A stretch of 64,000 nt of DNA from Candidatus Nomurabacteria bacterium (GTDB lineage: Bacteria; Patescibacteriota; Saccharimonadia; JAGOAT01). Each line of letters starts with the position of its first letter. The first letter of the stretch is position 1. The notes beneath the pieces were generated by a model. It was not told the origin of the DNA and ran no database searches. It was given only the letters and a program-made list of their open reading frames with translations. Below are positions 26,620 to 64,000 of this stretch, in pieces. The position numbers and the translations under genes were made by a program. Location: positions 82,511 to 146,510 of the forward strand of contig JACKGM010000001.1 of assembly GCA_020639315.1 (NCBI GenBank), written 5' to 3'.

Positions 26620-26745
26620 CCTTGTCATCCTCCGGTCAAATACTGGATCTCCGGGATTTCTCTAAAGAGAAATCCGAAGATGACAGGAGGAGGGCATTGT
26701 CATCCTCCGAAGTTCGGAGAACTTACGGGGGATCCAGTATTCGGC
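26620..26745. repeat. Hairpin-cassette doublet between the convergent mazF and rpmB genes
   Basis: Reverse subtype-2 unit 26640-26686, then GGAGGAGGGCAT, then forward subtype-1 unit 26698-26742. Confidence 0.85.
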
Positions 26746-38602: not shown

Positions 38603-40861
38603 TCAGTGTGTTGGGTCTGTAACTACATACATGATGGTTAATGCCAATCTAATACCCCGGTCAAAGCCATCGACTCGGCTTGGGTTATCTTTATATGTCT
38701 CTTGATGTAATCTTATAAGATCGTAAATATACCTAGACAATACTGGGTCGCTATCTACTAACCTAGATATCTCCATATAGTCATAGCTCAATATAACTGA
38801 TAACTTTTCCATATTTACCTGATCAATATCTAAATGTTCTAATCCTACCTCTGACCTGCCAAAATAATGACTAGACAAATGAGCTTCACTATGCAACCTA
38901 AGGTCGGCTGACTTTTCTAATGCAAGCTTCTCAAGGGCGGGACTTAAAGCGTGGTGTTTTCGCAAAAAACAAAATATTTCCATCGCCCCAAGGTAGCCCA
39001 CTTTAAACCCCTCTATGTATTGTTTTATATCCTTAGAATCTATTGGTAAATCCAGCCTACCAAGCATCTTTAAAAACTTACTCTCCCTCTCCAATATTTC
39101 CCCCAAAAATCGGTATTTACCAAATAAAGCTATTGTACTCTCACTAAGTCTTATCTCGTCAGGTCTAGTTAAATAATCATTGGCTAGTAGGTTACTATCA
39201 GACGAATCATAGTGATGGTCATAGAGCTCCATTAGCAGCTTAGGTTCTCGAGTCAAATCTACTATAACCCTTTCTAGCCCCCGGAATAATCCAGGGTCAC
39301 TTTCATCAGAACAAGTCACATTGATTTCAAGCCGTTTACCTGTAATATTTAGTAGTATCCTCAACCCAGGTGTGCTATCGATATCAAGCAAGCAAAAGAT
39401 TACAAATTTACTTTTCTTTGGCTCAATTTCAGATATAAGATGAACCAAATGCTCTAGCATCGCACCCAACTGTCTCCTATCTATAATATCAGGAATCGAA
39501 TTATCAAACTCAATAGCCACATTATCCCAATGATATTCACTATTAATCTTACCCTTACCTTGATCTATAACCTCTAAAATTCTACCCCCTAGATCAATAA
39601 CCTCAAACTCTGACCCGTGTACAAGTCCTTGTCCTAATTCCTGACATAAACCACCCCTAAGCTCTTCTATATATAATCCCAAAAAGTTAACCCCTAGATC
39701 AAACCCTGTTTCGAGTGCACCCAACGAACTCTCAACCTCTAGTTTAGCCTGTGTTCCTAGTACCCACTTGGCCAAATCAGTATACTTTGTGAGACTTAAT
39801 TGGCTCAATGTGACTTGATAGCTGTTCAAAATAAAGTCTTCCCTGTTGACCAACTCGCTCACCTCCTTTATCTTCTCAGGATTGAGCAACCAGCCAAACC
39901 CGGGATACTCATTACTTTTTGTGCGTTCTGTACTTAATTCTTCGGCATTAAGCAATAAAGCCATTGTCGCTACGCCCAAAGTAAAGCCGTGAGTAATACT
40001 CAATTCTTCTAATTCAGGACTCTCTATCTCACAGCAACTTTCATAGTAACTTTTCCAGACCTCAAACCATCCGCTTGCATATATTCCATGTCCTATTTCC
40101 CAGATAGTCTCGATGCTAGATGGTTCAAGGTTAAACCCAAGGGCGCATCTACTCAAATCATGCGAAATCCCTGAATCTTCGGGAGGCAAGCCTGAAGTAC
40201 CCGAGGTTTCGCCTAAGTAGGGTTTATCCTTAGATAACCTATCTACACTTCTTGCTTGTATTGTTTTCTGTTTATCTTGCAAATCGATCAAAACCTTCAA
40301 TAAGCAAAAGGCTAGATCAACCCCTTGTAAGTATGACAGTAAATTCTCTTCCTTAGTGCCTAGAATACTGACTCCGGTTTGAGCCTCAAACGCATCTTTG
40401 ATAGCTCTTGCTATATAAGGAAATCTAGAGCTAAGATCCATTGAGTTTAGTACTTCGCTGAAGCTTAGATCCATATCTTTCCCACCTGATAAGCCTAACT
40501 CTGCCCTCAAACTACCACAATCCATAATAATCTGCTCAACCGATAGCCCCTTATCCTCTGCTAAGATATAGGACATCAACCCAAGCCCAAATCTATAACC
40601 ACTACCGACCAACCCATCTGAGTCTTCTCCTAACAAATCATTACTAAGCTGTTCCCACAGCTTACCCCAGCCTGATCCTAGTAATTCTTCACTCATTGAA
40701 TAAATATCTTGATAGACCTTTGGAGTAAACTCAGCTTCAGACTTTGAATTTGGGTACTCTTCCATCTTGCTACTCAACCTATATCCACTGAAACCTAGAC
40801 CCCAATGCATTGTTAAAAAAATCAGATATTGATTCTCTAAAATCATAGAATTGTTGAACAA
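38603..40861 (-). CDS. Large acidic repeat protein (752 aa), unassigned family, paralogue of 41249-43567 and 43592-44275
   Basis: Recurring module: GSGYRFGLGLMSYIL, THGFTLGVATMALLL, ETGFDLGVNFLGLYI, IEGFKVGYLGAMEIF, VDGFDRGIRLALTIMYVV (C-terminal). No TM or signal peptide. The start is uncertain (TTG 40861, or ATG 40846/40810/40765). Confidence 0.65.
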   Translation of the reverse strand: MFNNSMILENQYLIFLTMHWGLGFSGYRLSSKMEEYPNSKSEAEFTPKVYQDIYSMSEELLGSGWGKLWEQLSNDLLGEDSDGLVGSGYRFGLGLMSYILAEDKGLSVEQIIMDCGSLRAELGLSGGKDMDLSFSEVLNSMDLSSRFPYIARAIKDAFEAQTGVSILGTKEENLLSYLQGVDLAFCLLKVLIDLQDKQKTIQARSVDRLSKDKPYLGETSGTSGLPPEDSGISHDLSRCALGFNLEPSSIETIWEIGHGIYASGWFEVWKSYYESCCEIESPELEELSITHGFTLGVATMALLLNAEELSTERTKSNEYPGFGWLLNPEKIKEVSELVNREDFILNSYQVTLSQLSLTKYTDLAKWVLGTQAKLEVESSLGALETGFDLGVNFLGLYIEELRGGLCQELGQGLVHGSEFEVIDLGGRILEVIDQGKGKINSEYHWDNVAIEFDNSIPDIIDRRQLGAMLEHLVHLISEIEPKKSKFVIFCLLDIDSTPGLRILLNITGKRLEINVTCSDESDPGLFRGLERVIVDLTREPKLLMELYDHHYDSSDSNLLANDYLTRPDEIRLSESTIALFGKYRFLGEILERESKFLKMLGRLDLPIDSKDIKQYIEGFKVGYLGAMEIFCFLRKHHALSPALEKLALEKSADLRLHSEAHLSSHYFGRSEVGLEHLDIDQVNMEKLSVILSYDYMEISRLVDSDPVLSRYIYDLIRLHQETYKDNPSRVDGFDRGIRLALTIMYVVTDPTH

Positions 40862-41248: not shown

Positions 41249-43567
41249 TCAATCATCAGATTTATCTTGATCCTCAAATAGCATGATAGATGCAAGGGTA
41301 AATATCAACTCTATGCCTCGATAGAATCCATTTGCAAAACCCTCATGCTTTCGCAATTTATCAAAAAATGACTGGTCTTCCTCGCCAATATTACCATGGG
41401 CATAGTCCAAAGCATAAAAAACAGCTTCCCTAAAATTAAAATCTTCATTAAAATCTTCCAGAAGGTCTCCAATATTATCAAAGTCATCTAACAGTATTCC
41501 AGTAATACTATCTAAATCTGAAAGGTTATCCCCATGAAATTCCACTACTTCATCACCTTGATCAGCTTCTTCTGGATCTGGATCACTTTCGTCCTCATAA
41601 TCTGAATTGATCATATTAAGATATAAATTGTTGATAGATTGTTCATCAATATCAAATTCTTGGATACCTTGCTCGAGTATCTCCAGGTGTCCGAAATGTC
41701 TCAATATATAAAGCCCAAAGTAAATCCCATAATTCCTAGCTTCAATATACGCTTGAAGATACTCGCGTAAGTGCCCATTCCTATTCAAATCAAAAATTGC
41801 TTCTACCATAGAAGTATCTATCTCTAGCAAGCTATTTAATACTTGTTGGCTACCGATATAATGAGCTGCCCAACCAACAACCCTCCCGTCTTCCTTGACA
41901 AACTCCCGCCATAGCCTAATATCTTCCTCTCTATACTCATAGCTCCCTGGGTCTAGCAAAAGCTCCACCCCTGGCCATATATTTTCTCCAAAGTCCACCA
42001 AGCTATCAGGTAGCTCGGAATTTGATTGTTCAATCTCGTACCTATAAATGGCATAGACTATTATGAACCCCTGATCCAGCCCATTAAAAAACTCTTCTTC
42101 AATGCCTCCCTCATCATCATAATACTCACTTGGAAAGTACCGACACAAATCTAATACCAAGTGACTCTTCCCCTTTAGGCCAAGCTTTCCAAGAACCATC
42201 TCAAAGTCACATTGTGCCAAGCTACTATTTTGGATTTCAAGGCTTACTCTTTTGATCATATCTTGACTGAAGGTTAATTGATCGACCTTAAGTCTATAAA
42301 CTATAATATCAGTCATCATAGCCAACCCAAGCTCAAATCCTTTATGCCAAAGCTTACTATCTGGCAAAGACTGCTCTCCCAGACCACTACAAACTGATTG
42401 ATAGACTGGATTTGAGTAGGCAAAAAGTGCACCCCTATTATGAAAAAACTGCCTAATACTGACTGGGTCAAATACTGAATCAGACTTATATTCTCTCAGT
42501 ACTTTAGCCAGAGTCAAGACAAACCTAAAACCTCGATCAAACCCTTTGGAAAAATCAGGGATATCATATTCTGGAGAGTCAAGCATTAGACCATTGATTT
42601 TCTGTATTGCAAAATCAAACATAGACTTTAGCCTATCATCTTGGCCCAACAATTGATCGATACTAAAAAAGTCATCTCCCATAGCTAGAATACACCAATC
42701 CAAAAGTGCGGGATCTTCTCCCATTACAATGCTTAGTAGCTCCCCAGTCTGATCGTTTGCCTGATCACGCATCAATACTTTTTTAAATAGATTATCCATA
42801 TATTTCTCACGGGCCTCACTGGCCATCTCTCCAGGGCTAGTAAGCTCTAAATCTTGAGCAAAAGACCCTAACCTCCCAAGGTGGTGTAAGGCCGCTACTG
42901 CAAAGTAAATTCCCTTTAGACTGCCGTACTCATAATTGTACCGCCTGTCTTTATCCACTTTTGGTACTTCATTCATTTGATCAAGACCTAGAAGGTACCA
43001 GCTAATAAATTCTCCAAGTAAAGGATAGTGGTGTGATAGCATATCACCTGTAAGTCGCATCTTTGCGGCCTCATTTTCCGACAAGAAAAAATCCTCAACA
43101 AATTGTATATACCCCGATAAAAACCTATGTTGATTGTAAAAATCCTGAAAGTAATCTGGCACCGTAGATAAGTCTAAAACTCTATGATCTGATAAATTGC
43201 TCAGCAATTCTAGGTCACCAACTTGAGAATTTGATATATCTAGGCTGACTACTCTAGTCTGATCAAGCCTCATCAGTACCAAGATCTTCTGTTCAACTGC
43301 AGGCTCTGGATTAGGACAAATCAGATCAAAATTATTAATCTCAGGGTAAATTTTACTCAAAATCTCTGCCAAGCTTACAAAAGTGGCAATAACTTGCTGG
43401 ATATCAACATTATTAGATACTACTGAAGGGTCAAAGTTGTACTCAATCTTATCCATCTCAGGAAAGTAAGGGGTTACTGCGTCCTTGTTGCCCATTGCCA
43501 GATATGCGTAGGTTGTTTCTATGCTGTGAAGATCACCCTCACGATCTGAAATATCTCTCTCCACCAC
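41249..43567 (-). CDS. Large acidic repeat protein (772 aa), unassigned family
   Basis: GTG start with an AAGGGGA Shine-Dalgarno. Modules LKGIYFAVAALHHLG, SKGFDRGFRFVLTLAKVL, HKGFELGLAMMTDIIVY, FNGLDQGFIIVYAIYRY, RNYGIYFGLYILRHFG, EGFANGFYRGIELIFTLASIML (C-terminal). Acidic run DYEDESDPDPEEADQGDEVVEFHGD. Confidence 0.7.
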   Translation of the reverse strand: MVERDISDREGDLHSIETTYAYLAMGNKDAVTPYFPEMDKIEYNFDPSVVSNNVDIQQVIATFVSLAEILSKIYPEINNFDLICPNPEPAVEQKILVLMRLDQTRVVSLDISNSQVGDLELLSNLSDHRVLDLSTVPDYFQDFYNQHRFLSGYIQFVEDFFLSENEAAKMRLTGDMLSHHYPLLGEFISWYLLGLDQMNEVPKVDKDRRYNYEYGSLKGIYFAVAALHHLGRLGSFAQDLELTSPGEMASEAREKYMDNLFKKVLMRDQANDQTGELLSIVMGEDPALLDWCILAMGDDFFSIDQLLGQDDRLKSMFDFAIQKINGLMLDSPEYDIPDFSKGFDRGFRFVLTLAKVLREYKSDSVFDPVSIRQFFHNRGALFAYSNPVYQSVCSGLGEQSLPDSKLWHKGFELGLAMMTDIIVYRLKVDQLTFSQDMIKRVSLEIQNSSLAQCDFEMVLGKLGLKGKSHLVLDLCRYFPSEYYDDEGGIEEEFFNGLDQGFIIVYAIYRYEIEQSNSELPDSLVDFGENIWPGVELLLDPGSYEYREEDIRLWREFVKEDGRVVGWAAHYIGSQQVLNSLLEIDTSMVEAIFDLNRNGHLREYLQAYIEARNYGIYFGLYILRHFGHLEILEQGIQEFDIDEQSINNLYLNMINSDYEDESDPDPEEADQGDEVVEFHGDNLSDLDSITGILLDDFDNIGDLLEDFNEDFNFREAVFYALDYAHGNIGEEDQSFFDKLRKHEGFANGFYRGIELIFTLASIMLFEDQDKSDD

Positions 43568-43591: not shown

Positions 43592-44275
43592 TTAATAACT
43601 ATAATCTGGTGTCACTCCTAGCCTATCTTGGTCTTTTAGATAGACCAAGATACTGAGTGTAAAATTGAGCCCCCGATAGAACCCATCTGAATCGAGATTA
43701 TTACTATCTTGTGCACTTTGATATGCTCTATCAATAGCATTTGAAAGTAGCCTAGCCCTAATGAGGCAATCCTGCCCCGCCTTTAGTAAATTTTTTACTA
43801 GATCTCTGGTTTCACCAATATTATTACGCAATGATACACTTGCATTATCTTGATCTACTAGATATTCTTGCAGCGGTAGTCTTGCCTTCTGCTCCTTAAG
43901 CCATTCGTTATATAGTCTATCCACCTCATCTTGCTCTATAATAACAGTATCAAAATCTAATAAAATACTAGCGATCCCTAGACCAAATTCAAAGCCAAGC
44001 CCGTGACCCCTGAGGTAAGTATTACTATCAAAGCCAGTGGATATATTATTCTTATCACCATAGATATCAAAAGTTTCTTCCACAAACTGATGATCTTTGG
44101 CGGCTAGCAAGCCTAGCTCATCTATACCATTAATACTTTGGGCGATCTTGGCGATCCAGCCATTGTCATCATCAAAATCAAAAAAATCTTTAATGCTTTT
44201 ATAAAGAGCGTCAAGTATCTCCCCCTCCTCTCGCAAATCTTTGCCTCTTAAATGCATGGTATCCATACTTATCAT
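43592..44275 (-). CDS. Acidic repeat protein (227 aa, two modules), unassigned family
   Basis: AAAGGAG Shine-Dalgarno. Modules LRGHGLGFEFGLGIASILL and SDGFYRGLNFTLSILVYL (C-terminal). Lies 24 nt upstream of the 772-aa paralogue and 36 nt downstream of galU. Confidence 0.7.
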   Translation of the reverse strand: MISMDTMHLRGKDLREEGEILDALYKSIKDFFDFDDDNGWIAKIAQSINGIDELGLLAAKDHQFVEETFDIYGDKNNISTGFDSNTYLRGHGLGFEFGLGIASILLDFDTVIIEQDEVDRLYNEWLKEQKARLPLQEYLVDQDNASVSLRNNIGETRDLVKNLLKAGQDCLIRARLLSNAIDRAYQSAQDSNNLDSDGFYRGLNFTLSILVYLKDQDRLGVTPDYSY

Positions 44276-49291: not shown

Positions 49292-50575
49292 TTAATCCAA
49301 TACTGAATGCCCGAAGGCTATTCGATCAGGTGAAACTGTGTATTGTCCTTTGGTCAGGCTACTAGCTGGTATAATTGTCCCTTTGCCATAAGCCTGGTTG
49401 ATCCGATCTATGACTTTATCCAATTTTTCTGATCCACTCGACTTACGCAAAATCCCCGACATCGACCCTAGTCCCAAAATTTGTTGCTCGGCTTGGCCCA
49501 ACCTACTGACGCCAATACTAACCTTTGCAACTCTTGCACCTCGCATCATAAGGTTGCTCTTATCCTCCAAAATCTCCTTTAGAATATATCTAAGAGATTG
49601 GTTAAACCTAACGATATCATTGACTGGCTCTACCAGCTGGATCTTACCAGACAGAGATAGGTGGTTCTTGCTAGGAGTATACCACTTGACCCTGAGCCAG
49701 ATCTCACTAGCTTTCAGACCCTGATCTCTCATTCTACGAGTAAGTTTCCAACTCATCTGAGTCAAATATCGACCAATATCCTGATCCGATTTTACTAAGC
49801 CTGGTGGAATGACTGACTGATGAGACATTGTTTTATTCTGTCTACTCACCATAGGTGGAACTTCTACTCCCTGCCACCTCAGATACCACTTGACTCCATT
49901 GATGCCAAAGGTTTGTTTAAGCAATGCTAGTGACATCTCTCGAAAATCCTTGACGGATACAACTCCTAACCCTGCTAATCTCCGTACCGTACCATAAGAT
50001 ATACCATTGAGCTGGTTTAATCTAAAATCATCAAAATAATCCGACCGATCGGGTTCAAGACAAACCAAACCATCGGGCTTCGCCAGCTCAGAAGCCATCT
50101 TGGCTAGCCAGGTGTTGCTGGCAATCCCAATTGACCCAGTAATCACTCCATTATACTTATGGGTTAGCTGTTTTCTGATCAAGTTGGCTACTTCCAGACT
50201 ATCTTCTCTATGATCTAAATACTTTGGCATTGTCAGGACTGCTTCATCGATACTAAGCATCTGCACCCTACAAAAAGTTTGCTCTAGGATTTCTTTAAGT
50301 TGATGGTGAACCTTTATATATTTACTTGGACTATCGCTGACTACTACAAGACTAGGATAGATTGATTTTGCTTCGGATATCCTCATGCCAGTAGTAATGC
50401 CCACTAGTTTGGCTTCTTGAGAAAGAGTCACTACCCTGCTCTGATCATTATTCCAAGGAGCTACTACTAGTGGCCTGTAACGGTACTCTGGATTGAAATA
50501 CTGCTCACAACTGGCAAAGAACCCATCCATGTCAATATAAAGTCTCGAATAGGGTCTGATCATATCACCGAACAT
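49292..50575 (-). CDS. dinB: DNA polymerase IV (Y-family)
   Basis: YIDMDGFFASCEQ catalytic motif, SIDEA, and a little-finger domain. Start moved to ATG 50575 (or 50563), because the track ORF's first 40 codons read through a hairpin cassette (LLSSSEVRRTYGGSSI). Confidence 0.85.
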   Translation of the reverse strand: MFGDMIRPYSRLYIDMDGFFASCEQYFNPEYRYRPLVVAPWNNDQSRVVTLSQEAKLVGITTGMRISEAKSIYPSLVVVSDSPSKYIKVHHQLKEILEQTFCRVQMLSIDEAVLTMPKYLDHREDSLEVANLIRKQLTHKYNGVITGSIGIASNTWLAKMASELAKPDGLVCLEPDRSDYFDDFRLNQLNGISYGTVRRLAGLGVVSVKDFREMSLALLKQTFGINGVKWYLRWQGVEVPPMVSRQNKTMSHQSVIPPGLVKSDQDIGRYLTQMSWKLTRRMRDQGLKASEIWLRVKWYTPSKNHLSLSGKIQLVEPVNDIVRFNQSLRYILKEILEDKSNLMMRGARVAKVSIGVSRLGQAEQQILGLGSMSGILRKSSGSEKLDKVIDRINQAYGKGTIIPASSLTKGQYTVSPDRIAFGHSVLD

Positions 50576-50634
50576 ATACCGAATATACCAGAAAAGTCCT
50601 TGTCTATCTACCCCTAAGAGACTTTCGGTGCAAT

Positions 50635-50840
50635 TCCGAATACTGGATCCCCCGTAAGTTCTCCGAACTTCGGAGGATGACAAGAGTTGTGTCATCTTCA
50701 GATGATAACAATGCCCCCTCCTCCTGTCATCTTCGGATTACCCGGAGGGGAATACCGGAGATCCAGTATTTGAGTTGAGAACCATAAATACTAAATACTG
50801 GATCCCCCGTAAGTTCTCTGAACTTCGGAGGATGACAATA
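50635..50840. repeat. Hairpin cassettes between the giant gene's stop and the dinB start
   Basis: Reverse units at 50640-50683 and 50793-50836. Forward subtype-2 unit at 50728-50775. Confidence 0.8.
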
Positions 50841-50845
50841 CAGGG

Positions 50846-53800
50846 TTACTCCACCCTTCTTTGTCGTCTGATCACTAGGACTGGGATAGAGATGATAGAG
50901 ATTAGTAAGAGTAATTGGGTGACTGGGTGAGAGAGGATACCAGTATTAGGTAAGATAGAGTTTGAAGTGATGTCTTTGGTATTGGGGTTGGTTGGGGTGG
51001 GTTCTGGGGTGGGGGTAGGTTCGGGTTCTGGTTCTGGTTCTGGGGTGGTAATACTAATACCACTGACTAGACCTGTGTTGTTGGTTTGGTCTGGGTCGGT
51101 TGAGGTGGTGGTGGTTAGAGTAGCGATGTTGGAGATAGTGTCTGAGGTGTCTTCTCCTATGTAGGTATTGATATATACTGTCTCACTAAGAGTAGGAAGA
51201 ATACTATCATCTAGAGTGCAGGTTACTGTAGTAGTACCACTACAGTTGAAGTTGGGGTTGGCACTAGTAAATCCTATGAAGGTTAGTCCTGTGGGGAGGG
51301 TATCAGTCACAGTGATTGGTCCTGGGGCTGAGGTGGTGGTACTATTGTTGGTTAGCTTGAGAGCGAAGGTGACTGTATCTCCTATCCTAATCTCTTCGGT
51401 GGTCTCAAGGGACTTAGTCAGGGAGAGGTCGGAAATGGGGAGGGGTTGGGTGGTGTCTGGGATCAGGATTAGGCTAGGCTCTGTATTGTCTGTAGGATCA
51501 TCATTGCCATTGCTAGCTGGATCATCTGAGCCATTGTCTGGGTCTAGTCCGTCTTGGGAGTCATCAGTGTAGGTATTGTCATTAGTATCAGTACTAGTGA
51601 CTAGAGCTGTATTGAAGTAGTCATGGTCTAGGGTAGGACTAGTCAAAGTCAGAGTAAAGCTTAGGACTGCTACTTGGTCTGGAGCTAGACTAGAGTCTGC
51701 TGGGATAGTTAGACTAGTATCAGTTACTCCATCATAGTTTGGATTGGCTACTACTGAGTCTGGAGTAGTAGTGATTGAGACTGGGGTAGAGACTACTATT
51801 TGAGTTGGGTCTAAGTCAGGGAAAGTAGCTACTAGGTCATCAGTGACATCAACCATTAAGGCTTGTCCTAGGCCATAGTTTCTGACTGTCAGGGTGACTG
51901 GGATATCATAGCTATTAGCTATTACTTGACTAGGGTTAGTTGAATCAACAGTAGGAGTAATCGCTCCGATTGATTTAGCAATCCCGACTAGGGGAGTAGG
52001 TTCAGGAATATCTACTGGGACAAGGATAGTCTCTTCACTATCAGTATTGTTGCCTTGGTTAATTACTGGCTCTTCATTAGAAGAGATAGAAGCTAGATTG
52101 GTAATATGGGTAGGGTTATCAAGAGAGGTCGAAGTATCAGAGCTGACTGTTACTATGACAGTCACTGGATCTATCAATGAAGCTGGGGAGACTGGGTAAG
52201 AACCTAGGTAGTTACACTCTACTACTCCGGGGTTACCAGGAGTAGAGCTAGTACAATCCCAATTGGTACCACTAGCTGAGACTAGAGTTAATTCTTGAGG
52301 GAGAGTGTCAGTAACGATGATTGGACTAGTACCCCCACTATTGACTATCTCTGCTCCACTCAGGGCTGGGGTTAGACTGTAGCTGTATTCTGTCACTCCA
52401 TCACTGAGCCAAGTAGCTAGCTCAGGGTCAGTGGTGGCGGGGAGGGTGTCTTTGGTGATAGTTAGGTCAGGAGTAGGCAAGAGGGTGATCTCGGCATTGT
52501 CTTCATCATCATGGAGGTCTAGACCAGTAGGGTTGGTAGTTGTGACTGGCTTACTACCGGGGTCACTAGGACTATCTGGGTCTGGGGCTGAAGTATTGTC
52601 ATTGGGATCAGAATCAATGTCTACTTGATCGAGTCCAGTGACCTGAGCCAAGTTCTTGATTGTACCAGTAGCAGTGGCTGAGAGATCCATCGTGATTTCT
52701 AGGGTAGTCTCTTCTCCACTGGGGATATCTCCAATGTTCCATACTCCTGTTAGAGGATCAAAGCTTCCTATGGTGCTAGCACTAGGAGCATCGGTAATAG
52801 AGTGAGAGAAGTAGACTAGGTCTGGAGCTAGTCCAGAGATGATATCTTCTACTACTACTCCAGTAGCATCTGATAGTCCATTACCTGTGTCATTGTTACT
52901 GACTGTAATACTCCAAGTCACTTGGTCTAGGGGTAAAGGAGTAGGATTGTTGACTGACTTAGTCAGCTCTAGGTCTACTACTCCTAGGACACCAATCTCT
53001 TCACTATCACTATTGTTGTCTTGATTAACCACTGGTTCTTCAGTAGAGGAGACAGTAGCAGTATTGGTAATAGTGGTATTAGGGTCTACTCCGGGATTAA
53101 GAGTGACTGTCAGAATAATACTCTCTAGGGTAGCTGGAGAGACTGGGTAAGAACCCAGGTAGTTACAGTCTAGAATTGCTGGACTACCTAGGCTAGAAGC
53201 ACTACAGTCCCAGTTGACTGCGTCTGGTCCAGTTGGGTAACCAGTCATAGTCAGTTCTGGAGGTAGGTTGTCTAGTACTCTGATTGGACTAGTACCCCCA
53301 CTATTGACTATCTCTGCTCCACTCAGGGCTGGGGTTAGACTGTAGCTGTATTCTGTCACTCCATCACTGAGCCAAGTAGCTAGCTCAGGGTCAGTGGTGG
53401 CGGGGAGGGTGTCTTTGGTGATGGTCAAGTCAGGAGTAGGGATATTGCTTGGATCCATCTCAGCAGTACTCTGATCACTCACGGTATTGTCAGGGTCTAC
53501 GGTATCTACTCCGTCTACAGTAGCTGTATTGTCAGCTGGGGATTCTGTGACTCCACTGTAGTCTAAGTCTACTACTACTGTAATCACTGCGAATTCACCG
53601 ATCGGTAGATCTGAAGTCAAAGGATCAAGCAATTGAGGGTTAGTCGACTTACCATCATAGCTAGGGTTGAGAGTCAGAGTCCCAGTAGCGGGGGCAGTAG
53701 AGACAGTAACGCTATTGACAGCAGTGACTACTACTCCAGGGATCTCGGTCTCAATATCATCTACTAGATTTAGCTGAGACAAGTCGACATTACCAGTATT

Positions 53801-56800
53801 CTCCAATCGAAGATCAATAGTGTAGCGGTAAGAGTCTAGACTTAAGAGTTCTGGAACAGTAGTGATTGACTTGACTAGATCAAGAGCTGGATTAGGGGTA
53901 GAAGCTCCGAAACTAGCTGGGTCACTGACACTAGATTGATCACTAGTCAGACTAGCGATGTTGGGGAGGGTATTAGCTAGACCTGAACAGTCGCCATTGG
54001 TAACTGTTAGACTAGCTGAAGGTGCTCCACCACCGAAGCCTAAAGCAGTTCCACCAGTCAGCTGAGCTAAGTTAATCCGACTGAGCTGGGTATAGTCAGC
54101 TGGGTTAGCTGAAATTAGTGAAGTATCAAAGACTACTAACTCTCTAGTATCCCCTAGACCGGGATTGACTGACCCAGTATTAACTCCTGAAACTACTAGG
54201 TATCTCCCATCTAGAGTAAGGTAGCTTGAAACAGCCAAGAAATCACTAGGCAAAGAGATTGAGCCTAGATAGGCTCCACTGACAGTATCCAGCATATCAA
54301 TACTGTAGTTACTAGTATTTGGTAGGTAATAATAAAAACCATAGGGATCAACTGCCGAGGAGATAAATTGAGTCAACGGGCTCACGCTATATACACTACT
54401 AGTAAGACTGCCAGTCAAAGTATCTATGATGCTGACTTCTCCACTCTCCTGATAGACAAAGAGCTTGTTCATACTCTTGGAGATTTCTAGAGTCATTGCC
54501 CCAGTGATAGAGTGGACTAATGTAGCTCCAGCCCCTAGATTGCTTGAATCTATCTTGTAGATTGAGCTATTAGAACCAAAGTCAGCTGCTACCCAAACAA
54601 TTCCTTGGTTGTCTATCTCGAGATCGATTGGTCCAGTTGTTACTCCTGGGAGAGTGATAGTCTGGATTGGAGTAGTCGGGACAACTGTCGGGACACTTGA
54701 AACATCATAGACTGATACCGACCCAGGAGTATTACCACTAGTATCATACTCGGCTATGAAAAGCTTGGTTTGATCTGGAGATAGAGCTACCGCCATTGCA
54801 TAATTTGAAGCACTGACTGTAATCGAGCCAATTAGGCTAATGTTATCCTTATCACTAGTATCATAGATATCTACTATCCCAGCGACTGGGTTATCTGGAT
54901 CAATCAAGTTTGGTAGATAAGTGATAGACCCATCTCTAGTAGTCACAACATCACCAATCCCTCCTCCAGAGATATTACCTGGATCTGGGTCAGGCAATGG
55001 CGTCCAGGTGGTTGGATCAGTCGTGACATCAAAGAAGAAATTGGAATCCATACCAAGACCAATAGATCCATAATAATCTGAGCTAGCCATCCACTCCCTC
55101 TCAGTATCATAGACAGTAATCGTATGATCGCCAGCAGTACAAGGCAAATCAGTTGATGTGAAATTGTATAGGTAGCAACCATTACTGTCAGCTACAGTAG
55201 TAGCAAACAGTGAAGAATCGACATAGATAGCTACAGTAGCATTAGCCTCAGTCGTACCGACAATTGTCCCATTACCAAAAGCATCGATATCAATCCAAGG
55301 GGTAGAAGTCAAAGCTGGGTCAGGGTTACAGCTCGGTGCATTACTAAAGACTGAGTAGTAGTCAGTGATATTGAGCTCCACCGTGAAGCTGATTACTCCT
55401 GAGTCACCATCTAGGAGGGTTAGCCCGGAGCTAAAGATGTCTGGGTCTAAGCTACTTGCACTAAAGCTAGAGTTTAGGTCTGAGGCTGTAATGTCTGATA
55501 ACACAAACCCACTATCAATCACTGGCATAGTAGTGACTGTGATGTCCGAGCTAGTGAGGTTTAGACTAGTCTCAATATTATCGACTAGCTGGAAGTTGGT
55601 CAGGTCCTGACCTCCGAGGTTACTAGCAGTGATAGTAACACTAGCTGAGTAAAGGTTATCAGAGATATGTACTAGATTATTAATGTCTTTTGTGATATCA
55701 AGTCCTAACTCTTGAGCCACAAAGCCAAAGTCAATAGTGAGGTCACTATTGATACTACCATCTCCATCATTACTCGGCTCTGAGTCAGTAGCAAGACTGA
55801 TTACTTGAGTGATTACTCCATAGCTAGACAGTTCTCCATTGTCATCACTATCTATCTGATCATCTCCAGATTGTCCTGAGATTGAACTGTATCCATATAG
55901 AGCTCCCCCAGTAGTTAGCTGACTAGCTGGGATTAGGACGAAGTAGTCTCCTGCGCTCAGACCAGCAAACTGATACCAGCCTGATTCAGTCACCCCGGTA
56001 GTAGCTGGGTTGTCTCCCGTGATTGTAGTAGAGACTAGGGTGTCTACTCCACTGTCATAGACACCATTGTCATTAGTATCTAGGTAAAGCTCTAGAGTCA
56101 CCCCATTGACTCCAGTGTCAGTGATATAGTCATAGACTGAGTTATTGCCATTTTCGATCCAGACAGTATTACCAATACTTAAGCTAGTATCATAGATCCC
56201 GGCATCAATGTCTGGGTAATAGTTGTCAGGCATTATTCCAGTCGCTAGAGTGAAGGTAGCGGTTTGTCCAGTAGTCAGATTCTCGACATCAGAGTCGTAT
56301 TGATCAGTAGTTTGATTAGCGGAGGTAAAGACATAGTTGGTAGGTAAACTACTAAAGGTGATGTAATAGTCTCCAGCAGGAACATCATCAAACTGATACC
56401 AACCAGTCTCGATGATTCCTACAGTGTCTGGATTGTCTCCCGTGACAGTAGTAGATACTATGCTGTCATCGATTGCACTGTAGAGGGTGACAGTTATTCC
56501 GTCTACTCCCGACTCAGTGATGTCTTGGATGCCATCGTGGTTACCATCATTCCAGACATAGTTGCCCAAACTAGTTGTCTGGTAAAACCCAAAGTCCAAT
56601 GTGTTATTAGTATTACTATCAGTATCCTCATCAGTGATTGGTTCAGTCAATGGTTCTAGGGTAATAGCTTGAGATGCTACCCCAGCTGAGTAATCACTTC
56701 CGCCATTGACTACTACTCCATTGTCATCATTGTCGGTGTCATTATCTGGGTCTACTACTAGAGTAGAGCTAAAGTAGTTCTCTAGGACTGCACCAGTATC

Positions 56801-59800
56801 AAAGTTTGTACTAGTGACTAAGACTAGGTAATCTCCTGGGATTAGGCCATCAAACTGATACCAGCCTACTTCAGTCACTCCAGTGGTGTTTGGATTGTCT
56901 CCAGTGACAGTACTTGAGACTAGAGCATCTATCCCAGGATCATAGACTCCATTGGAGTTGGTATCTTGATAGAGCTCTAGTACTACACCATCGATACCAG
57001 TCTCACTACCGTTGACAGTACCGGAGTTGTCTAAATCATTCCAGACGTAGTTGCCGAGGGATAGTCCTACTTCACCAAAGTTGTTCTCTATTGAGTCTTC
57101 GTTTTCAAGTAGTACGATTGAGTTAATCTGATTGACTGTTAGTGGATCAGATGTCTGTAAGCTCCCTTCTCCGTATCTAGGATCAGTCCCAGCTCCGTCT
57201 GGACCATTACTAGGGTCAGGCAAGGGGTCACCATTACTATCATAGCCCAGGAAGCCATTGTCTGAGCCAGTAGAAGCATATTGGCTGGGCTGAGTTTCAT
57301 AGAGATTGTAAGTACCAGGATAGAGACCAGCAAAACCATAGTGACCATTTTGATCAGTCATCACTGGGCTAGTGATCAAGTATCCGGCTGGATAGGGATT
57401 TGAAGCACTATAGCTACCAGCTGGGATTAGTCCTTGACTGACTAGATTGGTCATAGCTTGTTCGTATTCTACTGGATATTGATTCTTGTCTGGCACTAGG
57501 ATATTCCCGAGCAAGTCTACTCCACTGAGGAAGACATCTACTCCCTCTATCCCATAGTCACCATCATCGATCGCTATGTCCTTGTCTTGGTCATAGAAGA
57601 CAGTACCAGAGATAGTTGAGAGACCAGCTGGAATGATTGGTACTTCGTGAGTATCAGTATTGTCAGTGATGTCTACTTCAGTACTGGTAGTATCGACTGA
57701 TACTATGTTCTCTACTACTGTGTAGGGGTTGGTCAAGAGGTTGATGTCACCCTTAACAACAACTGTGATATCAATACTAGAAGCTGAGCCACTAGTCAGG
57801 GTGAAGCTTGATGGAGTAGAGCTATCTCCATCATCATCACAGTAGATAGTGTAGTCTGGTGCAGTTCCCTCAGTGCTACAGACTAGCCCAGGGATGTCAG
57901 TAGCTAGGTTGGATTGATCGATTACTGGGATCTCACTAGGGTTGGTCGAGAGGTGAGTATTGTCAAGAATATCTACTAGACTGAAGTTAGTAGCATCTTG
58001 ATTGCCATTGTTACCAAACTCAATAGTGTAGGTGTACTCCTGACCGAGGTTGGCTTTGATATCACTACCAGTCTTGACAGCATAGACATTACTAGCAGTC
58101 CCGACTAGAGTCGAGGCTGAGTCAGTATTGTTCTCTGGAGTAGGGTCGAGGGTGGATGAGTCAATACTAGCAGTATTTACGAGGATTGAGCCATCGACTG
58201 CTCCAGGATCAGCTGGATTGATTGGCTGAGTGATAGTCACTACTCCTCCCTCTCCGGGAGCTAGAGTGAGAGTAGAGGCAGTAGCTGAGGATCCATCATT
58301 GTCACAGTAAATCTTACGGTTGGCTGAATCAAAACTACAGAGCATAGTTGCCCCACTGTCTAGGGTAGCCACGATCACTGGAGTACTAGGAGGATCTGTC
58401 TGGAAGGCTAGAGGAAGCTGGTCAGTAACTACTACTGCATTACTAGTATTTGGTCCGAGGTTACTAAACTCTAGAGTATAGGTCAGGGTATCACCATTAG
58501 ATATCTCAGTCGTAGTGATGGCTGAGAGATCGACTGACTTCTTAAGCTCTAAGTCTGACTGAAGTAAGAACATTCTATCAGTATCAGTGTTGTTGCTAGT
58601 CAAGAGTTCGGGAGTAGCGGTAGCAATAGAGACATTGTTGTCTATAGTAGTTAAGGTAGTATCTTGCATTGCTACTACATCAAAGCCAAACTTAGTGACT
58701 GGTCCTTGATAGGTAAAGGTATATCCATAGATCTTAGGTTCGGCAGTCGGGTTGGCTGTCCGATCGAAGTCGAAGCGGATACAGATATTAGTCACTGTAG
58801 CAGGAATACTAGAGATGTCGACTACTGAGGTGACTGGCTGATTCTGCCACTGAGTACCGAGGGAGGTGGTACAGGTGCTATTGCTATAGAGGGAGTAGGT
58901 GATCGATGTACCCTCTGGGATTTCTGAGTCTATTAGGAGCTTGCTCCAGGAGTCGTGGAGGGTGGGACTGACGGTAGTGTATTTGTAGTAGTAAGCGGAG
59001 GTGTAGTATTTAATAACTTGTTGGGTCCAGACTCCATCCTCGGGACTGAAGAGGTAGGCGGAGCCGGAGTTGGCGCCATTGTCGTCATCCCTGTATGCCC
59101 CGACCACGACCCGGTCTCCACCGATCGCTACACTGTAGCCGAACCAGTCATCAGCCGCCGCATCACTAGCAGTCAGCTTGGTCTCGACCCAACTGCTGCC
59201 ATCCCAGTCGTAGAGGTAGGCGGAGCCGGAGTCGGTGCCATTGTCATCATCATAAGGTGCCCCGACCACGACCCGGTTTCCATTGATTGCTACGCTCTGG
59301 CCGAACCGGTCATCAGCCGCCCCATCACTAGCAGTCAGCTTGGTCTCGACCCAACTGCTGCCATCCCAGTCGTAGAGGTAGGCGGAGCCGGAGTCGGTGC
59401 CATTGTCGTCATCCCTGTATGCCCCGACCACGACCCGGTCTCCATCGATCGCTACACTGTAGCCGAACCAGTCATTAAACACCCCATCACTAGCAGTCAG
59501 CTTGGTCTCGACCCAACTGCTGCCATCCCAGTCGTAGATGTAGGCGGAGCCGGAGTAGATGCCATTGTCGTCATCATAAAATGCCCCGACCACGACCCGG
59601 TCTCCGTCGATTGCTACGCTCTGACCGAACCGGTCATTAGCCGCCCCATCACTAGCAGTCAGCTTGGTCTCGACCCAACTGCTGCCATCCCAGTCGTAGA
59701 GGTAGGCGGAGCCGGAGTTGCTGCCGTTGTCGTCATCATAAAGTGCCCCGACCACGACCCGGTCTCCATTGATTGCCACACTGTAGCCGAGGCTATCACC

Positions 59801-62800
59801 AGCCGCCCCATCACTAACAGGTAGCTTGGTCTCGACCCAACTGCTGCCATCCCAGTCGTAGAGGTAGGCGGAGCCGGAGTCGGTGCCATTGTCGCCATCC
59901 CTGTATGCCCCGACCACGACCCGGTCTCCATCGATTGCTACGCTATAACCAAACAAGTCACCAGAAGCCCCATCACTAGCCAATATCTTCTCAATTCCAC
60001 CCGGGCTTAAATAGTCAGATGGTATTGTATTGATCTGACTCTTAACCCCCGTAAAACTCCCCGCCTCTCCAAAGTACCGAGAATTTGGCAGCTCAGAGTT
60101 CCAGTGAAATCTTAGGTCTGTGATACTACAATCCTGACTATTGGTATAGACTGGGGTATAGTCCCAGGTGATACCATTGTCATTGCTGTATTGTAAAGTA
60201 GTATTGGGGGGTTGATTGGTGACAGAATTTTGACGATAGCAAGTATTTACAGGAATTGATTCGACTAGGTCAGGATTGTCAGCTGAGATGTTACCAACAT
60301 TGCCATACTCGACGTCATAATGTATTCTCTCCCCAGCATCTATGTAAGTATCATCATTGTCAGCTGTAGAATTACAGTTGTTATCAGCTCCACAACCAAA
60401 GCCATCTTTGTGAGTATAGAGGTCTGCTCTCCAGACTACTACACTACTACTGTCAGTATTGTTGTCTAGATAATCTTCTACTGGAGTAGAGAGCTTGGTC
60501 ACAGTAGCCTGATTGACAATCTCTACTGAGTCCTGGGTACTATCTAGGACTCTAGTATATACTTGAAACTCAAAGTAGGTATTGGCTGGCATACAGACAG
60601 TATTAGGGGGATTGGTGCTGTCTCCTATCTCAATATCTAGCATTGATGCTGTTGAGTTGTCTGTCACTCCGACTAAGTCAGTGATCTTGTCTCCTACTAG
60701 ATTGACGAAGTCGGTAGAGCTATTGTCACTAATGTTACGAAGCTCAACTGTACCGAGACTATGGAGTGGGGTCTGGGGTTCTAGATAGGCTAGGTTACTA
60801 GTCAAGTCATCTGTTACTCCGATCTGACAAGTAGACTCTGTCCCCTTATTCTCTACTCTGAGGGTATAAGTCAGTGCTTCTCCAGGAGCGATACCAGGAT
60901 AGGATCCTGAAGGGTCTGAGGTCTTGGTGATAGCGAGGTCGGAGCTAGGAGTCTTGGTCGTAGCATTACTATGATTGTTAGTAGTATTGATGTCAGTATC
61001 AGCATAGATGTCAACATTGTTAGTGAGAGTAGTGCCCGAGGGTAGGTTAAACCCAGTGTCTGGATCAGTAGCTGTCAAGTTGATAGATACTGTATATGGT
61101 CCAGCTTGACTAGCTAGAGTACTAGGATTAGGTAAGATAGCAATATAGTTGGGAGAGGACGAACCAGTCCCGGGAGTAAGAGTCCAACCATTGCTGGTCG
61201 GATTGTTGGGATCAAAGGCTGGAGGAGAGGCAGTGATTGCTCCTGAGTGGTAATATACTTGTTCCCCATTACTAACACTGACGAAATTGAGGGTGACATC
61301 GCTCTGTCCAGCTCCACTCGGATCACTAGTAGTGTCCCAGTCGGGTAGAGTATCGATTAGGTATACTCCAGTAGCTTCTGCTCTAGAGTCATTACCATAG
61401 ATTAGATTAAACTCCCAAGTCTCTCCGGGGATTACGGTTCTCTCTCCGACTTTAATAGCGTAAGGATCAGCTTCGGGAGTAGTGACTGAGCTAGTAGCGG
61501 TATTGGGATAATTATCTGGACTCTCTATGTCAGTCGAGCTGACCGATACATTGTTACTCAAGGTAGTATTATTGGCAATAGATTGATCAATATATACTTT
61601 GTAGGTGATTAGGATTTGCTCAGAGAGAGCGGGGATAGTACCAGTCGGGTAGGAGGTATGATCGATTGTCCCGTTCCAAGTAAGGGTCTGACCACTAGCA
61701 CAAGTACCACTGACAGTCGGAGCTGGTAAGCTCCAACCCCCGGAGACTGAGATCACAGTCGGGGTAGCGGAGTTGTAGCAAATACCAGGATCAAGGGTAT
61801 CGGTGATCACTACATTATTGGCACTAGCTAGACCTTCATTGGAGACTAGGAGGGTGTAGTTAAAGAAGTCTTGATTGGGGGCAGATGAAGGTATGGGATC
61901 AGTCCTAGAGACTTGCTTGGAGATAGCTAGGTCTGGGTTACGGACTACTAGAGTGTCAGTGTCGGTGACTTGTCCGGGCTTGCCACTACTGTCTTCATAG
62001 TAACCATCGGCTTTGTTGGTAATAATTGAGCCAGTGACTAGATCGGTATCTGCTACTAGGTTTAGGGTGATTACTCCTCCCTCACGATCAGCTAATCCTA
62101 GTCCTGAGCCACGGAGACTAGGGCTAGTACCATCATCATTGGCGATTTCAATTGTGATAGTAGCTGTCCCATCTAGGTTGCTAACAATACTGACTACGGG
62201 GTTAGTCGTAATGTCGACTTCTCCACTACTAGCACCTTGACTAATAGCATGACTGTTAAAGCTGTTTTTAATCGAGCTTAGACTTACTCCGGCTGGTAAG
62301 TGGTCAATGATTCTAGTGACTGAATTGGTAGTACCTGAGTCATTGAGATAGTCTATCTTCCACTGGAAGGCTTCTCCAGCCTTGAGGACTTCACTACCAC
62401 TACTAGTGACTTCATACTTGTTGATAGCTAGACCAGGACTAGGCAAGATAGTGGTAAAGACTGGAGGTGCGATCGCTTGGAGTAGTTCACTTGAGAGGAT
62501 TGCATTGGAGTTGGAGATAATTGATCCTGCAGGAGAACCTTCGACTGTGGGAGTAGTATTGTTCGAATCATTAGTTACCTCTACTCCGACACTACCGATC
62601 GCTCCGACTGGGAACATTGAGGGAGTCAAGGCACTGTTGTCTACTAATACTGCGAAGTAACTAGTCTCTATCCCGAAGGGTGAGACCCAGCGAGTACCCC
62701 CAGAGGGATTGGCTTCCTGGGTACCTAGAGTAAAGTTGTTATTGATAATGGTGGGATCAAGCGGATCAGAGGGAGAAAGATCACTCGGCAAGGGTGGGAT

Positions 62801-64000
62801 ACTCTTAGAGAAATAGGCTTTGCAATTGGTACAGGAATAGCTATTGCCGACTGGATCTGTGCCATTGAGATAGAGGTAGTCTAAGACTGTCTTGTCAGGG
62901 ACTTTGTCTACTACCCAAGTCTGAGTAGTAGGGTTGATACCGATGTTTTGGAAATGGAGAGCATAGTGGATATTGTCTCCAGTGGGGATTAGGGATTCAG
63001 TGACTTCTTTGTAGGTGATGAGACTGGCAACACCGGGGTAGATTTGGGTTCGAATTGTATCAGTCGAGCCTACCACTGGACAGTTGGCATTGTCTTGATA
63101 AGTAGTGGTCGGAGTAATATCAATGTTTTTGTATGGCAATGTCCCAGCTGACACTAGGTACTTGATAGTAATAGTCTCAGAACTACCAGCAGGTAGATTG
63201 CCTAGGTTGATAGTCATCTGATAGGGTGAGCTATAGATCTTGCTTAGGTCGACTGAGCCGGTAGTAGTATCGACATTGACTAGCTTGAGATAGGTATTGG
63301 CTCCTCCGACATTGATTACTGGAGTCGGTATGGTGACTACGGTATTTAAGGCAGTTTCAAATAGGGTTGAGAGCTTGATCGTGTATTCAATTTCTCCAGG
63401 AGGAGTCACGCCAACTGGACCACTAATATCCGTAATCACCCTCGGTGTGACTGGACTAATCAGAGCTGGATCAGACTGGATATTTTGGAGTGGGGTAGCA
63501 AGGTCGCTGGGCAATTGAGGTGCGGTCAATGGATCAGAGAAAGGTAGCTCACTGCCACCTTCATAAGCATAAAAGAGAGCTTGATTGCTAAGAGTACGAA
63601 TACTACAGGTCGTATCTTGCATCGCCTTGACTGTTATCTTGGCAGTGGTAGAAGTAGGCTGATTGGCACATCTGCCACTAGTAGGAGCGTCAAATAAGTT
63701 GCTATTGAGACAATCTACCCGAAATGCCACCCAGGTCACATCACTAGGATCAGCGGGTGGGTTCAGTAAATAATCAATCCAGCCAGTCATTACTCCAGTC
63801 AGGGGATCGTATCCTGGGGGATCTGTCATACTTCTATCTACTTCGTCTGTACGATACCAAATACTACCATTGACTCCGTTGGGTAAGCTAGCATTGACGA
63901 AATCGGTACTGTGGGGTTGGTTGTTTACCGTATCTCCATCGGCTAAACTCTTCGGTATCTTGTCAATCGTGACAAGATCACCCAAGGTAGTAGTCCCACT
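50846..64000 (-). CDS. Giant cell-surface protein (more than 4379 aa; N-terminus outside the window) with DUF11, FG-GAP, SdrD-B/Cna-B-like and beta-propeller-like repeats and an LPXTG-type anchor
   Basis: A single ORF that is still open at nt 64000. Many DUF11-type modules (for example DLAISKQV...[27 protein letters not shown]). Six FG-GAP repeats, four SdrD-B-like modules, a PT/PE linker, and a C-terminal LPNTG + hydrophobic + RRQRRVE signal. Confidence 0.9.
   Translation of the reverse strand, partial: [4384 protein letters not shown]
50849..50953 (-). other. Sortase sorting signal (LPNTG, TM helix, basic tail)
   Basis: Codons 50953-50939 read LPNTG, followed by [23 protein letters not shown] and RRQRRVE*. 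Confidence 0.85.
52318..52470 (-). repeat. Intragenic ~150-bp exact duplicate, copy 1
   Basis: Encodes [50 protein letters not shown]. The same DNA string occurs at 53280-53433. Confidence 0.8.
53280..53433 (-). repeat. Intragenic ~150-bp exact duplicate, copy 2
   Basis: See 52318-52470. Confidence 0.8.
55880..57640 (-). other. Four SdrD-B / Cna-B-like modules within the giant protein
   Basis: [30 protein letters not shown]..., [30 protein letters not shown]..., [13 protein letters not shown]...[10 protein letters not shown]..., and [12 protein letters not shown]...GIEGVDVFL...[15 protein letters not shown]. Confidence 0.7.
59020..59995 (-). repeat. Six tandem 162-bp (54-aa) FG-GAP repeats with high DNA identity
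   Basis: The CCAGTCGTAGAGGTAGGCGG phase marker lies at 59204, 59366, 59528, 59690 and 59852 (exact 162-nt spacing). Peptide unit: DG..[42 protein letters not shown]. Confidence 0.9.

Follow-up and report, generated by a model that had tools for sequence, protein, structure and literature searches.

The stretch of DNA analysed here (64,000 nucleotides of contig JACKGM010000001.1, assembly GCA_020639315.1, deposited under the name Candidatus Nomurabacteria bacterium; hereafter the window) carries on its minus strand a giant gene for a putative surface protein, which takes up about one fifth of the 64 kb and is still open at the window edge. Its reading frame is uninterrupted between its stop codon (50846-50848) and base 64000, i.e., over 4,384 codons, and the first start-type codon listed in frame is a TTG at 63985, from which a product of 4,379 amino acids (aa) would be read. 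Since the other two frames of the same strand contain 340 and 504 stops across the gene, a chance origin of the frame is excluded. The visible product (462 kDa) has a pI of 4.05 and is rich in Thr (12.5%), Ser (10.9%) and Asp (9.7%), with Lys and Arg together contributing only 2.7%. A preliminary description of this DNA, made from the letters alone, had reported an uninterrupted 13.1-kb frame of more than 4379 aa running off the window; frame and length stand, and the strand, which had been left unstated, is added here. Stops or frameshifts, named in the same description as possible signs of a pseudogene or a chimeric assembly, do not occur in these 13.15 kb, and within the window the gene shows no sign of decay. 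We consider it likely that the gene encodes an acidic, cell-wall-anchored fibrillar adhesin of a Saccharibacteria bacterium (Patescibacteria, or candidate phyla radiation, CPR) with a full length of about 4,900 aa.

Domain architecture of the giant protein

Pfam was run on the whole visible protein and on ten overlapping segments of it. A frequent module is DUF11, which has been renamed CLIPPER and was found by crystallography to be a CnaA-like stalk domain with a Lys-Asn isopeptide bond formed under Asp catalysis (PMC12617251). The features of the gene are as follows (CLIPPER modules are named by their starting Lys; TRF, Tandem Repeats Finder; AF2, AlphaFold2; GC3, GC content at third codon positions).

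50846-64000, minus strand: giant surface-protein gene, C-terminal 4,384 codons and stop (open frame; homologue alignment)
59990-64000, minus strand: conserved family block, a chain of CnaA/Ig-like domains (residues 1-1337) with CLIPPER modules K528, K695 and K1026 (homologue alignment; DUF11, DUF7619, DUF7927)
59021-59989, minus strand: six FG-GAP_2 repeats (residues 1338-1660) (Pfam, TRF, AF2, Foldseek, GC3)
57626-59020, minus strand: post-propeller module (residues 1661-1815) and CLIPPER modules K1821 and K1976 (DUF11 E 1e-16, two stretches; DUF7619, DUF7507; same-order homologue alignment)
55706-57625, minus strand: four SdrD B-like (CnaB-type) domains (residues 2126-2765) (Pfam, PDB match, internal repeats, motif count)
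53441-55705, minus strand: insertion (residues 2766-3520) with CLIPPER-like K2771, a weak Big_6-like stretch, the second propeller and CLIPPER-like K3377 (BLASTP against the family)
54011-54973, minus strand: second beta-propeller-like domain (residues 3010-3330) (single-sequence AF2, Foldseek)
51050-53440, minus strand: C-terminal stalk with CLIPPER modules K3529, K3681, K3850, K4009 and K4196 (DUF11 E 9e-28 and 6.6e-22; triad alignment)
50849-51046, minus strand: Pro/Thr/Glu wall-spanning linker and three-part sorting signal (direct reading; weak NF053819 match)
50990-51046, minus strand: Pro/Thr/Glu linker TPEPEPEPEPTPTPEPTPT (direct reading)
50939-50953, minus strand: LPNTG, residues 4350-4354 (direct reading)
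50870-50938, minus strand: 23-residue hydrophobic segment ILSHPVTQLLLLISIISIPVLVI (direct reading)
50849-50869, minus strand: basic tail RRQRRVE (direct reading)

On the whole protein DUF11 (PF01345) scores E 3.1e-69 and 230.9 bits against a gathering cut-off of 24.6, the related families DUF7619, DUF7927 and DUF7507 match as well, and the NCBIfam model for the DUF11-type repeat (TIGR01451) finds seven stretches (150.5 bits), bearing out the many DUF11-type repeats seen in the preliminary description. Twelve CLIPPER modules could be aligned (MAFFT), and the Lys, Asp and Asn columns are invariant in all twelve; several modules carry paired cysteines. In order and rough spacing this triad corresponds to Lys715/Asp748/Asn806 of the solved CLIPPER domain (PMC12617251), and each module is probably locked by a Lys-Asn isopeptide bond, as judged from the alignment. 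One CLIPPER module compared by sequence with the PDB gave no meaningful match.

The four SdrD-B/Cna-B-like modules that had been proposed are recovered as four stretches of SdrD_B (PF17210; E 1.7e-40, 138 bits). B domains of SdrD are the only solved structures with a sequence match to the giant protein (chains 10ps_A and 4jdz, E 2.5e-15 to 3e-10), and the array contains six calcium-loop-like motifs of the form D-x-[DN]-x-[DNS]-G in internal repeats that are 40-54% identical to each other. With FG-GAP_2, DUF11 and SdrD_B all above threshold, the domain calls hold under hidden Markov model (HMM) search, and the matches fall in one frame along the whole length of the protein. A CBM96 match in the part encoded at 57626-59020 is weak (E 0.027) and below threshold. 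In the C-terminal stalk, residues 3509-3698 and 3832-4011 are 61-73% identical, which points to a recent internal duplication.

A modelled and a probable beta-propeller

The six-blade FG-GAP array of the preliminary description corresponds to six stretches of FG-GAP_2 (PF14312), with E 3.7e-114 on the whole protein and 1.6e-121 in the segment scan (373-397 bits). At the DNA level it is a tandem repeat with a period of 162 nt (5.7 copies, 87% matches by TRF). An AF2 model built on an alignment of 34 relatives comprises 24 strands in a closed six-bladed propeller (predicted local distance difference test, pLDDT, 86.6; predicted TM-score, pTM, 0.85), and its best Foldseek matches are integrin alpha propellers (E ~1e-16, TM 0.64-0.67); the array thus models as a six-bladed, integrin-alpha-like beta-propeller.

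This cassette stands apart from the remainder of the gene in its composition. Its GC3 is 0.68 against 0.39 in the rest of the gene (other 323-codon windows have a mean of 0.386, a standard deviation of 0.027 and a maximum of 0.464), a signal carried by fewer independent codons than it appears, as the six units copy each other. Thousands of stand-alone FG-GAP_2 proteins (400-660 aa) from Actinomycetia, Planctomycetota, Bacteroidota and other groups share 45-66% identity with the cassette, while the scaffold flanking it is 33-37% identical to its best relatives. The cassette also differs from the stand-alone proteins in having six repeats, not the seven in the consensus of the aligned ones, and in being embedded in a giant stalk. 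We read the cassette as a propeller of apparently foreign origin whose repeats were homogenised after its acquisition.

The claim of beta-propeller-like repeats at about 54000-54950, exemplified by the peptide LSPDQTKLFIAEYDTSGNTPGSVSVYDVSS (located at residues 3073-3102, window positions 54695-54784), fared less well at the level of families than at that of the fold. The sole Pfam match in the region 54011-54973 is to DUF5711, with E 1.5e-3 and below the cut-off. A single-sequence AF2 model of the region is all-beta and of low confidence (pLDDT 57, pTM 0.55), and its Foldseek matches are beta-propellers (1ri6, hydrazine synthase, YncE and WD40; E ~1e-9 to 1e-7, TM 0.4-0.5). Residues 3010-3330 therefore likely adopt a propeller fold of some kind.

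The C-terminal sorting signal

Read directly, the protein ends in TPEPEPEPEPTPTPEPTPT-NPNTKDITSNSI-LPNTG-ILSHPVTQLLLLISIISIPVLVI-RRQRRVE followed by the stop codon, and the Pro/Thr/Glu linker, the LPNTG motif, the transmembrane segment and the basic tail of the preliminary description are all located at 50849-51046. An LPXTG-type pentapeptide near the C-terminus, followed by a hydrophobic segment and a positively charged tail, is the anatomy that marks a sortase substrate.

An unnamed family of giant DUF11 proteins

Word-based searches had left the protein looking like an orphan, with nothing found for the first 600 residues and three weak DUF11 matches for residues 2990-4384. This view was overturned when the first 1,200 visible residues were searched exhaustively with HMMER, which recovered 1,029 proteins at E <=1e-3, 134 of them at E <=1e-30. 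The best relatives (P0004-P0016) are 35-39% identical in the same order over ~1,170 residues (E 1e-194 to 1e-100). Residues ~20-1200 of the query align to residues ~540-1700 of the relatives, and from the offsets of 507-550 we deduce that ~530 residues (1.6 kb) lie beyond the window, hence the full length of about 4,900 aa given above. The records of family members carry names such as "DUF11 domain-containing", "large repetitive protein" or "TIGR01451 family" (e.g., MCC6619601.1).

BLASTP against 150 listed representatives of the family extends the match to query residue 1340 (~540-1830 of the relatives, of which more than 100 giant surface proteins align in this order) at 33-37% identity for P0004, P0005, P0006, P0009, P0010, P0011, P0013, P0016 and P0020. 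Two blocks are conserved in the family, residues 1-1340 and residues 1660-2780, the latter comprising the post-propeller module, two CLIPPER modules and the SdrD-B array. Between them, at the same position in the relatives, lies a variable propeller slot (residues 1340-1660), which holds FG-GAP_2 here, FG-GAP_3 in P0009, P0010 and P0020, and Sortilin/BNR in P0006. The 755-residue insertion that follows the second block (residues 2766-3520) has no BLASTP match at E <=1e-8 in any of the 150 representatives, and the remainder after it shows generic DUF11 similarity only. From the shared SdrD-B block to the end there are ~100-570 residues in the closest members and ~1,600 here. The gene is thus, as far as these alignments tell, a mosaic of a conserved scaffold, a propeller slot with varying content and an insertion found only here, and its product an unusually long member of an unnamed, widespread and unstudied family made of known modules.

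Close members begin with a basic and hydrophobic signal or anchor segment and have LPXTG-like ends (LAKTG, LVNTG, LPPTG, LPVTG, LPQTG). The distant ones, from metagenome-assembled genomes (MAGs) labelled as Deltaproteobacteria, close with a Gly/Cys-rich motif, then a hydrophobic segment, then a tail rich in Arg; given these two kinds of ends, the scaffold is used with different sorting systems.

Sortase adjacency could be judged at six homologue loci that extend beyond the end of the giant gene. Directly downstream in three of them (L081, L085, L089) lies a sortase gene (PF04203, 161-224 aa), which begins 13 nt past the homologue's stop codon or overlaps it; the translated sortases of L081 and L085 contain the active-site motif T[ML]YTC. 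The other three loci (L084, L086, L088) have a different gene at this place. The adjacency supports sortase processing for the family as a whole.

A separate observation concerns P0002, a protein of 2,232 aa from the Joint Genome Institute and a weak DUF11 relative of the C-terminal part, whose precomputed Pfam list includes sortase PF04203; a DUF11 surface protein may here be fused with its sortase.

Organism and neighbouring genes

The DNA belongs to a Saccharibacterium. The threonyl-tRNA synthetase (ThrRS) encoded near the giant gene is 57-60% identical to those of Candidatus Saccharibacteria MAGs and at most 47% identical to all others, which favours an origin in Saccharibacteria (Patescibacteria/CPR) over the Nomurabacteria label. 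Proteins identical to this ThrRS, to the lysyl-tRNA synthetase (LysRS) and to the DinB-like protein of the window are on record at NCBI as "Candidatus Saccharibacteria bacterium" (MCA9349660.1, MCB9834527.1, MCB9834528.1), from one long contig and from a fragmented MAG (GCA_020428505.1). Exact copies of ThrRS, of PGK and of the shorter, 423-aa form of the DinB-like protein also lie on short contigs of 1.5-7.5 kb. The labels on the long NCBI contig are mixed, in that proteins are assigned to "Candidatus Saccharibacteria bacterium" and two of them to "Candidatus Nomurabacteria bacterium".

The neighbours of the giant gene are ordinary chromosomal genes, namely those for the DinB-like polymerase, tRNA-Lys, ThrRS, LysRS and a sugar nucleotidyltransferase, along with several open reading frames (ORFs) without Pfam match. 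The window further encodes three large histidine kinases, PGK, a G5/DUF348 protein, KsgA and ClpB, and an Rfam scan of it returned two tRNAs only. At 80 ThrRS loci of other genomes, neither the giant gene nor any other neighbour had a relative within 10 kb.

The three histidine kinases (716-757 aa, one with a seven-transmembrane sensor region) are arranged in tandem at 28247-34834 on the minus strand; near-identical domain scores of two of them suggest a recent duplication. A separate pair of kinase and response regulator is encoded at 17497-19261. Three adjacent ORFs on the minus strand (38603-40861, 41249-43567 and 43592-44275; 752, 772 and 227 aa) have no Pfam match and share a C-terminal motif, (D)GF.RG[IL]...[LF]TL/I, right before the stop. 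Between the two longer ones identity is only 22% across 330 residues (E 1.7e-5), and the three may form a lineage-specific paralogous family. The DinB/ImpB-like ORF at 49292-50695 counts 467 aa from its first ATG, a form that is not on record; the NCBI protein starts at 50563 (423 aa, MIRPYSRLYIDMDGFF...).

A dispersed repeat around the locus

A repeat of 44 nt, TGTCATCCTCCGAAGTTCGGAGAACTTACGGGGGATCCAGTATT, is found in 12 copies in the window with up to 2 mismatches, where 0 are expected, mostly between the listed ORFs; the copies at 22002 and 25746 lie inside listed ORFs without Pfam match. Copies often have next to them an inverted partner (..AAATACTGGATC..CCGAAGATGAC) and related half-units whose central hairpins vary. 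The repeat has no Rfam match and looks like a structured repeat family of the repetitive extragenic palindrome (REP) or miniature inverted-repeat transposable element (MITE) kind.

408, 1218, 14070, 14155, 14934, 21605, 22002, 25746, 26698, 41096, 50639, 50794: starts of the 44-nt repeat
50700-50845, minus strand: structured repeat element right after the stop of the giant gene, with one copy of the 44-nt repeat and its inverted partner (RNA fold)

The 149 nt that begin with the stop codon of the giant gene (50700-50848, minus strand) are predicted to form a multi-branched RNA fold (-53.8 kcal/mol, z -3.26) made up of the repeat and its inverted partner, which may act as a terminator or stabilise the transcript. 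In a short-read MAG of the same organism (GCA_020428505.1) the assembly is fragmented around the giant locus, with DinB alone on 1.8 kb and a ThrRS contig that begins 216 nt upstream of ThrRS; the repeats may break assemblies near the giant gene. An ORF for a PemK/MazF-type toxin (26276-26605, plus strand, E 1e-23) lies between two copies of the 44-nt repeat, one at 25746 (~490 nt upstream) and one at 26698 (93 nt downstream), and another copy overlaps the N-terminus of the 467-aa DinB-like ORF.

Proposed function and alternatives

If the gene encodes a fibrillar adhesin, its product would be exported via Sec by an N-terminal signal outside the window and retained in the membrane through its hydrophobic C-terminal segment and the tail RRQRRVE, until a sortase encoded elsewhere in the genome cuts between the T and the G of LPNTG and joins the protein covalently to peptidoglycan. 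The Pro/Thr/Glu linker would then span the wall, and at least 12 CLIPPER modules together with four putatively calcium-binding and calcium-stiffened SdrD-B modules would form a long stalk. On it would be displayed two beta-propellers and the unseen N-terminal tip as candidate ligand-binding parts, with glycans or surface polymers of a partner cell as their most likely target. Cultivated Saccharibacteria are epibionts, which makes a partner-cell target plausible. The preliminary description had arrived at a major attachment structure, plausibly for a host or partner cell, and its interpretation held in each part that could be checked.

Several observations weigh against this picture. That the target is a partner cell is purely what we infer. 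The curated HMMs for LPXTG anchors give no match at threshold on the C-terminus, the best being NF053819 (sortase-dependent surface protein; E 3.2e-4, 21 bits against a cut-off of 47), and neither Gram_pos_anchor nor TIGR01167 matches in the Pfam and NCBIfam scans of the giant protein. Short sorting signals of divergent lineages often score under curated cut-offs. No sortase gene lies in the window, as already noted in the preliminary description: no ORF of at least 100 aa has a TLxTC-type motif, the Pfam scan of 40 ORFs yielded 0 sortase matches, and tblastn with the sortases of the homologue loci found no match. Downstream of the giant gene follows the DinB-like polymerase, unlike in half of the homologue loci; since the three loci L084, L086 and L088 also lack an adjoining sortase, its absence here is not unusual. 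In favour of the picture, over half of the genomes from CPR bacteria have a sortase gene (PMC6744442).

Other unfavourable points concern the gene itself, and would be explained if the locus were a decaying or mis-assembled repeat-rich region from which no full-length protein is made, an alternative that we regard as quite unlikely. The N-terminus, including any signal peptide, lies beyond base 64000, and an exact-match search for the end of the window gave no hit in GTDB genomes or JGI metagenomes. A collection of 15 billion proteins does not contain the giant protein, although it does contain the products of both flanking genes on the long NCBI contig, ThrRS (MCB9834527.1) and the DinB-like protein (MCB9834528.1); this would fit annotation as a pseudogene or a gene left uncalled in the NCBI record, and a pseudogene flag could stem from an upstream frameshift, real or introduced by assembly. 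An independent Logan contig from the same population (SRR28385528, 1,319 nt) carries a CAA to TAA change at L087 position 761 (window 61873), turning Gln710 of the fragment into a stop, and the gene is split there into two called ORFs; the break of the short-read MAG around the locus can be added to this side. The lone nonsense base may, however, be a sequencing error or a minor allele, on a short contig whose read depth is not known. The same contig is 99.6% identical to window positions 61335-62633 over 1,299 nt with 0 indels, so that at least this part is not chimeric. A frame free of stops over 13.15 kb next to others with hundreds of them, HMM matches in a single frame over the whole length, and a triad kept in every one of the 12 CLIPPER modules likewise argue against decay.

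A functional protein could also be wall-anchored without being an adhesin for a specific host cell. As a structural or protective coat, a spacer or a glycan-scavenging scaffold, its acidic stalk would set the distance between cells or shield the envelope, and the ligands of its propellers would be nutrients or polysaccharide of the cell itself. The extreme acidity (pI 4.05), a Thr and Ser content of 23% and the large share of stalk domains, which make up most of the length, are in line with such a role, and so is the occurrence of the stalk-like part of the family in free-living Deltaproteobacteria-type MAGs with a different sorting signal, by which the family is not tied to epibiosis. On the other hand, FG-GAP, VCBS and integrin-like propellers are ligand-binding modules, and the propeller slot changes type among homologues, as would be expected of a specificity determinant. 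Fibrillar adhesins typically combine a sorting signal with a stalk that bears propellers at its end or inserted along it (PMC12617251), and in a cultivated Saccharibacterium the lectin-like VCBS surface protein SEML1_0891 is essential for epibiotic growth (PMC10633639). We consider a coat or spacer unlikely. An LPXTG-type signal, CnaA/CnaB-type isopeptide domains and a dedicated sortase beside some homologues would also suit a subunit of a sortase-polymerised pilus. At ~4,900 aa the protein is roughly ten times the size of known pilins, though, pilin genes adjoin neither it in the window nor its relatives at the homologue loci, and the linked sortases are short (161-224 aa) single genes in place of the usual pilin cluster with a pilus-specific sortase; on its size and the lack of pilin neighbours we reject the pilin role, which has hardly any probability left.

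The wall-anchored adhesin could moreover have a more particular evolutionary history. The slot behind the ~1,800-aa scaffold would in that case take interchangeable cassettes that set partner specificity in a cross-phylum family, the FG-GAP_2 cassette having been acquired horizontally and a second, lineage-specific propeller added. We offer this as a tentative idea that is more doubtful than probable.

Comparison with known systems

A close parallel is provided by fibrillar adhesins with CLIPPER stalks such as B9T28_05395 of Acinetobacter silvestris (PDB 9IFR, PMC12617251), which share the tandem CLIPPER modules with the Lys/Asp/Asn triad, the frequent paired cysteines, the great length and repeat-rich nature, and the order of signal peptide, stalk and C-terminal sorting signal. 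They differ from the giant protein in that the latter has an LPXTG/sortase-type anchor, belongs to a CPR bacterium and bears two propellers and an SdrD-B array within the stalk.

With staphylococcal SdrD, one of the microbial surface components recognizing adhesive matrix molecules (MSCRAMMs), it shares CnaB-like B repeats with calcium-loop motifs and the LPXTG wall anchor, but the B domains here amount to ~15% of the protein and are not its core. Neither Pfam nor NCBIfam finds an N2-N3 A region in the visible 4,384 residues, Ser-Asp repeats are absent from the sequence, and a match to ClfB is limited to the Pro-rich linker (E 0.38). Membership in the Sdr/Clf group of MSCRAMMs is ruled out by the lack of an A region and of Ser-Asp repeats in the visible part.

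Within its own unnamed family (P0004-P0037 and others) the protein shares the same-order match over residues 1-1340 and 1660-2780, the propeller slot, the SdrD-B array before the anchor and, with the close members, the LPXTG-like end. It departs from them by FG-GAP_2 instead of FG-GAP_3 or Sortilin/BNR, by a longer C-terminal part with a second propeller that has no match in the family, and by the lack of an adjoining sortase. The FG-GAP_2 propeller resembles that of integrin alpha in fold. Integrin alpha propellers have seven blades. The six-bladed FG-GAP_2 cassette of apparently foreign composition and the 755-residue insertion with the second propeller are the features particular to this protein.

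Among functionally studied proteins, SEML1_0891, SEML1_0315 and SEML1_0890 of Southlakia epibionticum (PMC10633639) are also surface proteins of Saccharibacteria with lectin-like or glycan-binding domains and proposed binders of host glycans, a likeness drawn here without sequence comparison. They carry VCBS, dockerin or FN3 domains and are experimentally essential, whereas the giant protein is a candidate known from its sequence only.

Possible implications for host attachment in Saccharibacteria

How Patescibacteria recognise their hosts and attach to them is largely unexplained. Type IV pili have been implicated, and "additional close-proximity adhesins" have been proposed without being named (PMC11623550, PMC10633639). 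Several surface proteins with lectin-like or glycan-binding domains, VCBS included, are essential for the epibiotic growth of a cultivated Saccharibacterium (PMC10633639), and additional adhesins acting at close range were proposed from the work on type IV pili in another one (PMC11623550). The giant gene described here is a concrete candidate for such a close-range adhesin in an uncultivated Saccharibacterium. Attachment to a host is a plausible role for its product, which makes a good candidate for the attachment protein of an epibiont and represents no new type of system. If the idea of swappable cassettes were true, the gene would be a rapidly evolving determinant of the host range of an epibiont. 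The family, which combines a conserved scaffold with a propeller that can be swapped and in many cases with a sortase of its own, offers a comparative handle on attachment, and as such giant genes are lost from short-read MAGs and protein catalogues, their frequency in CPR bacteria is probably underestimated.

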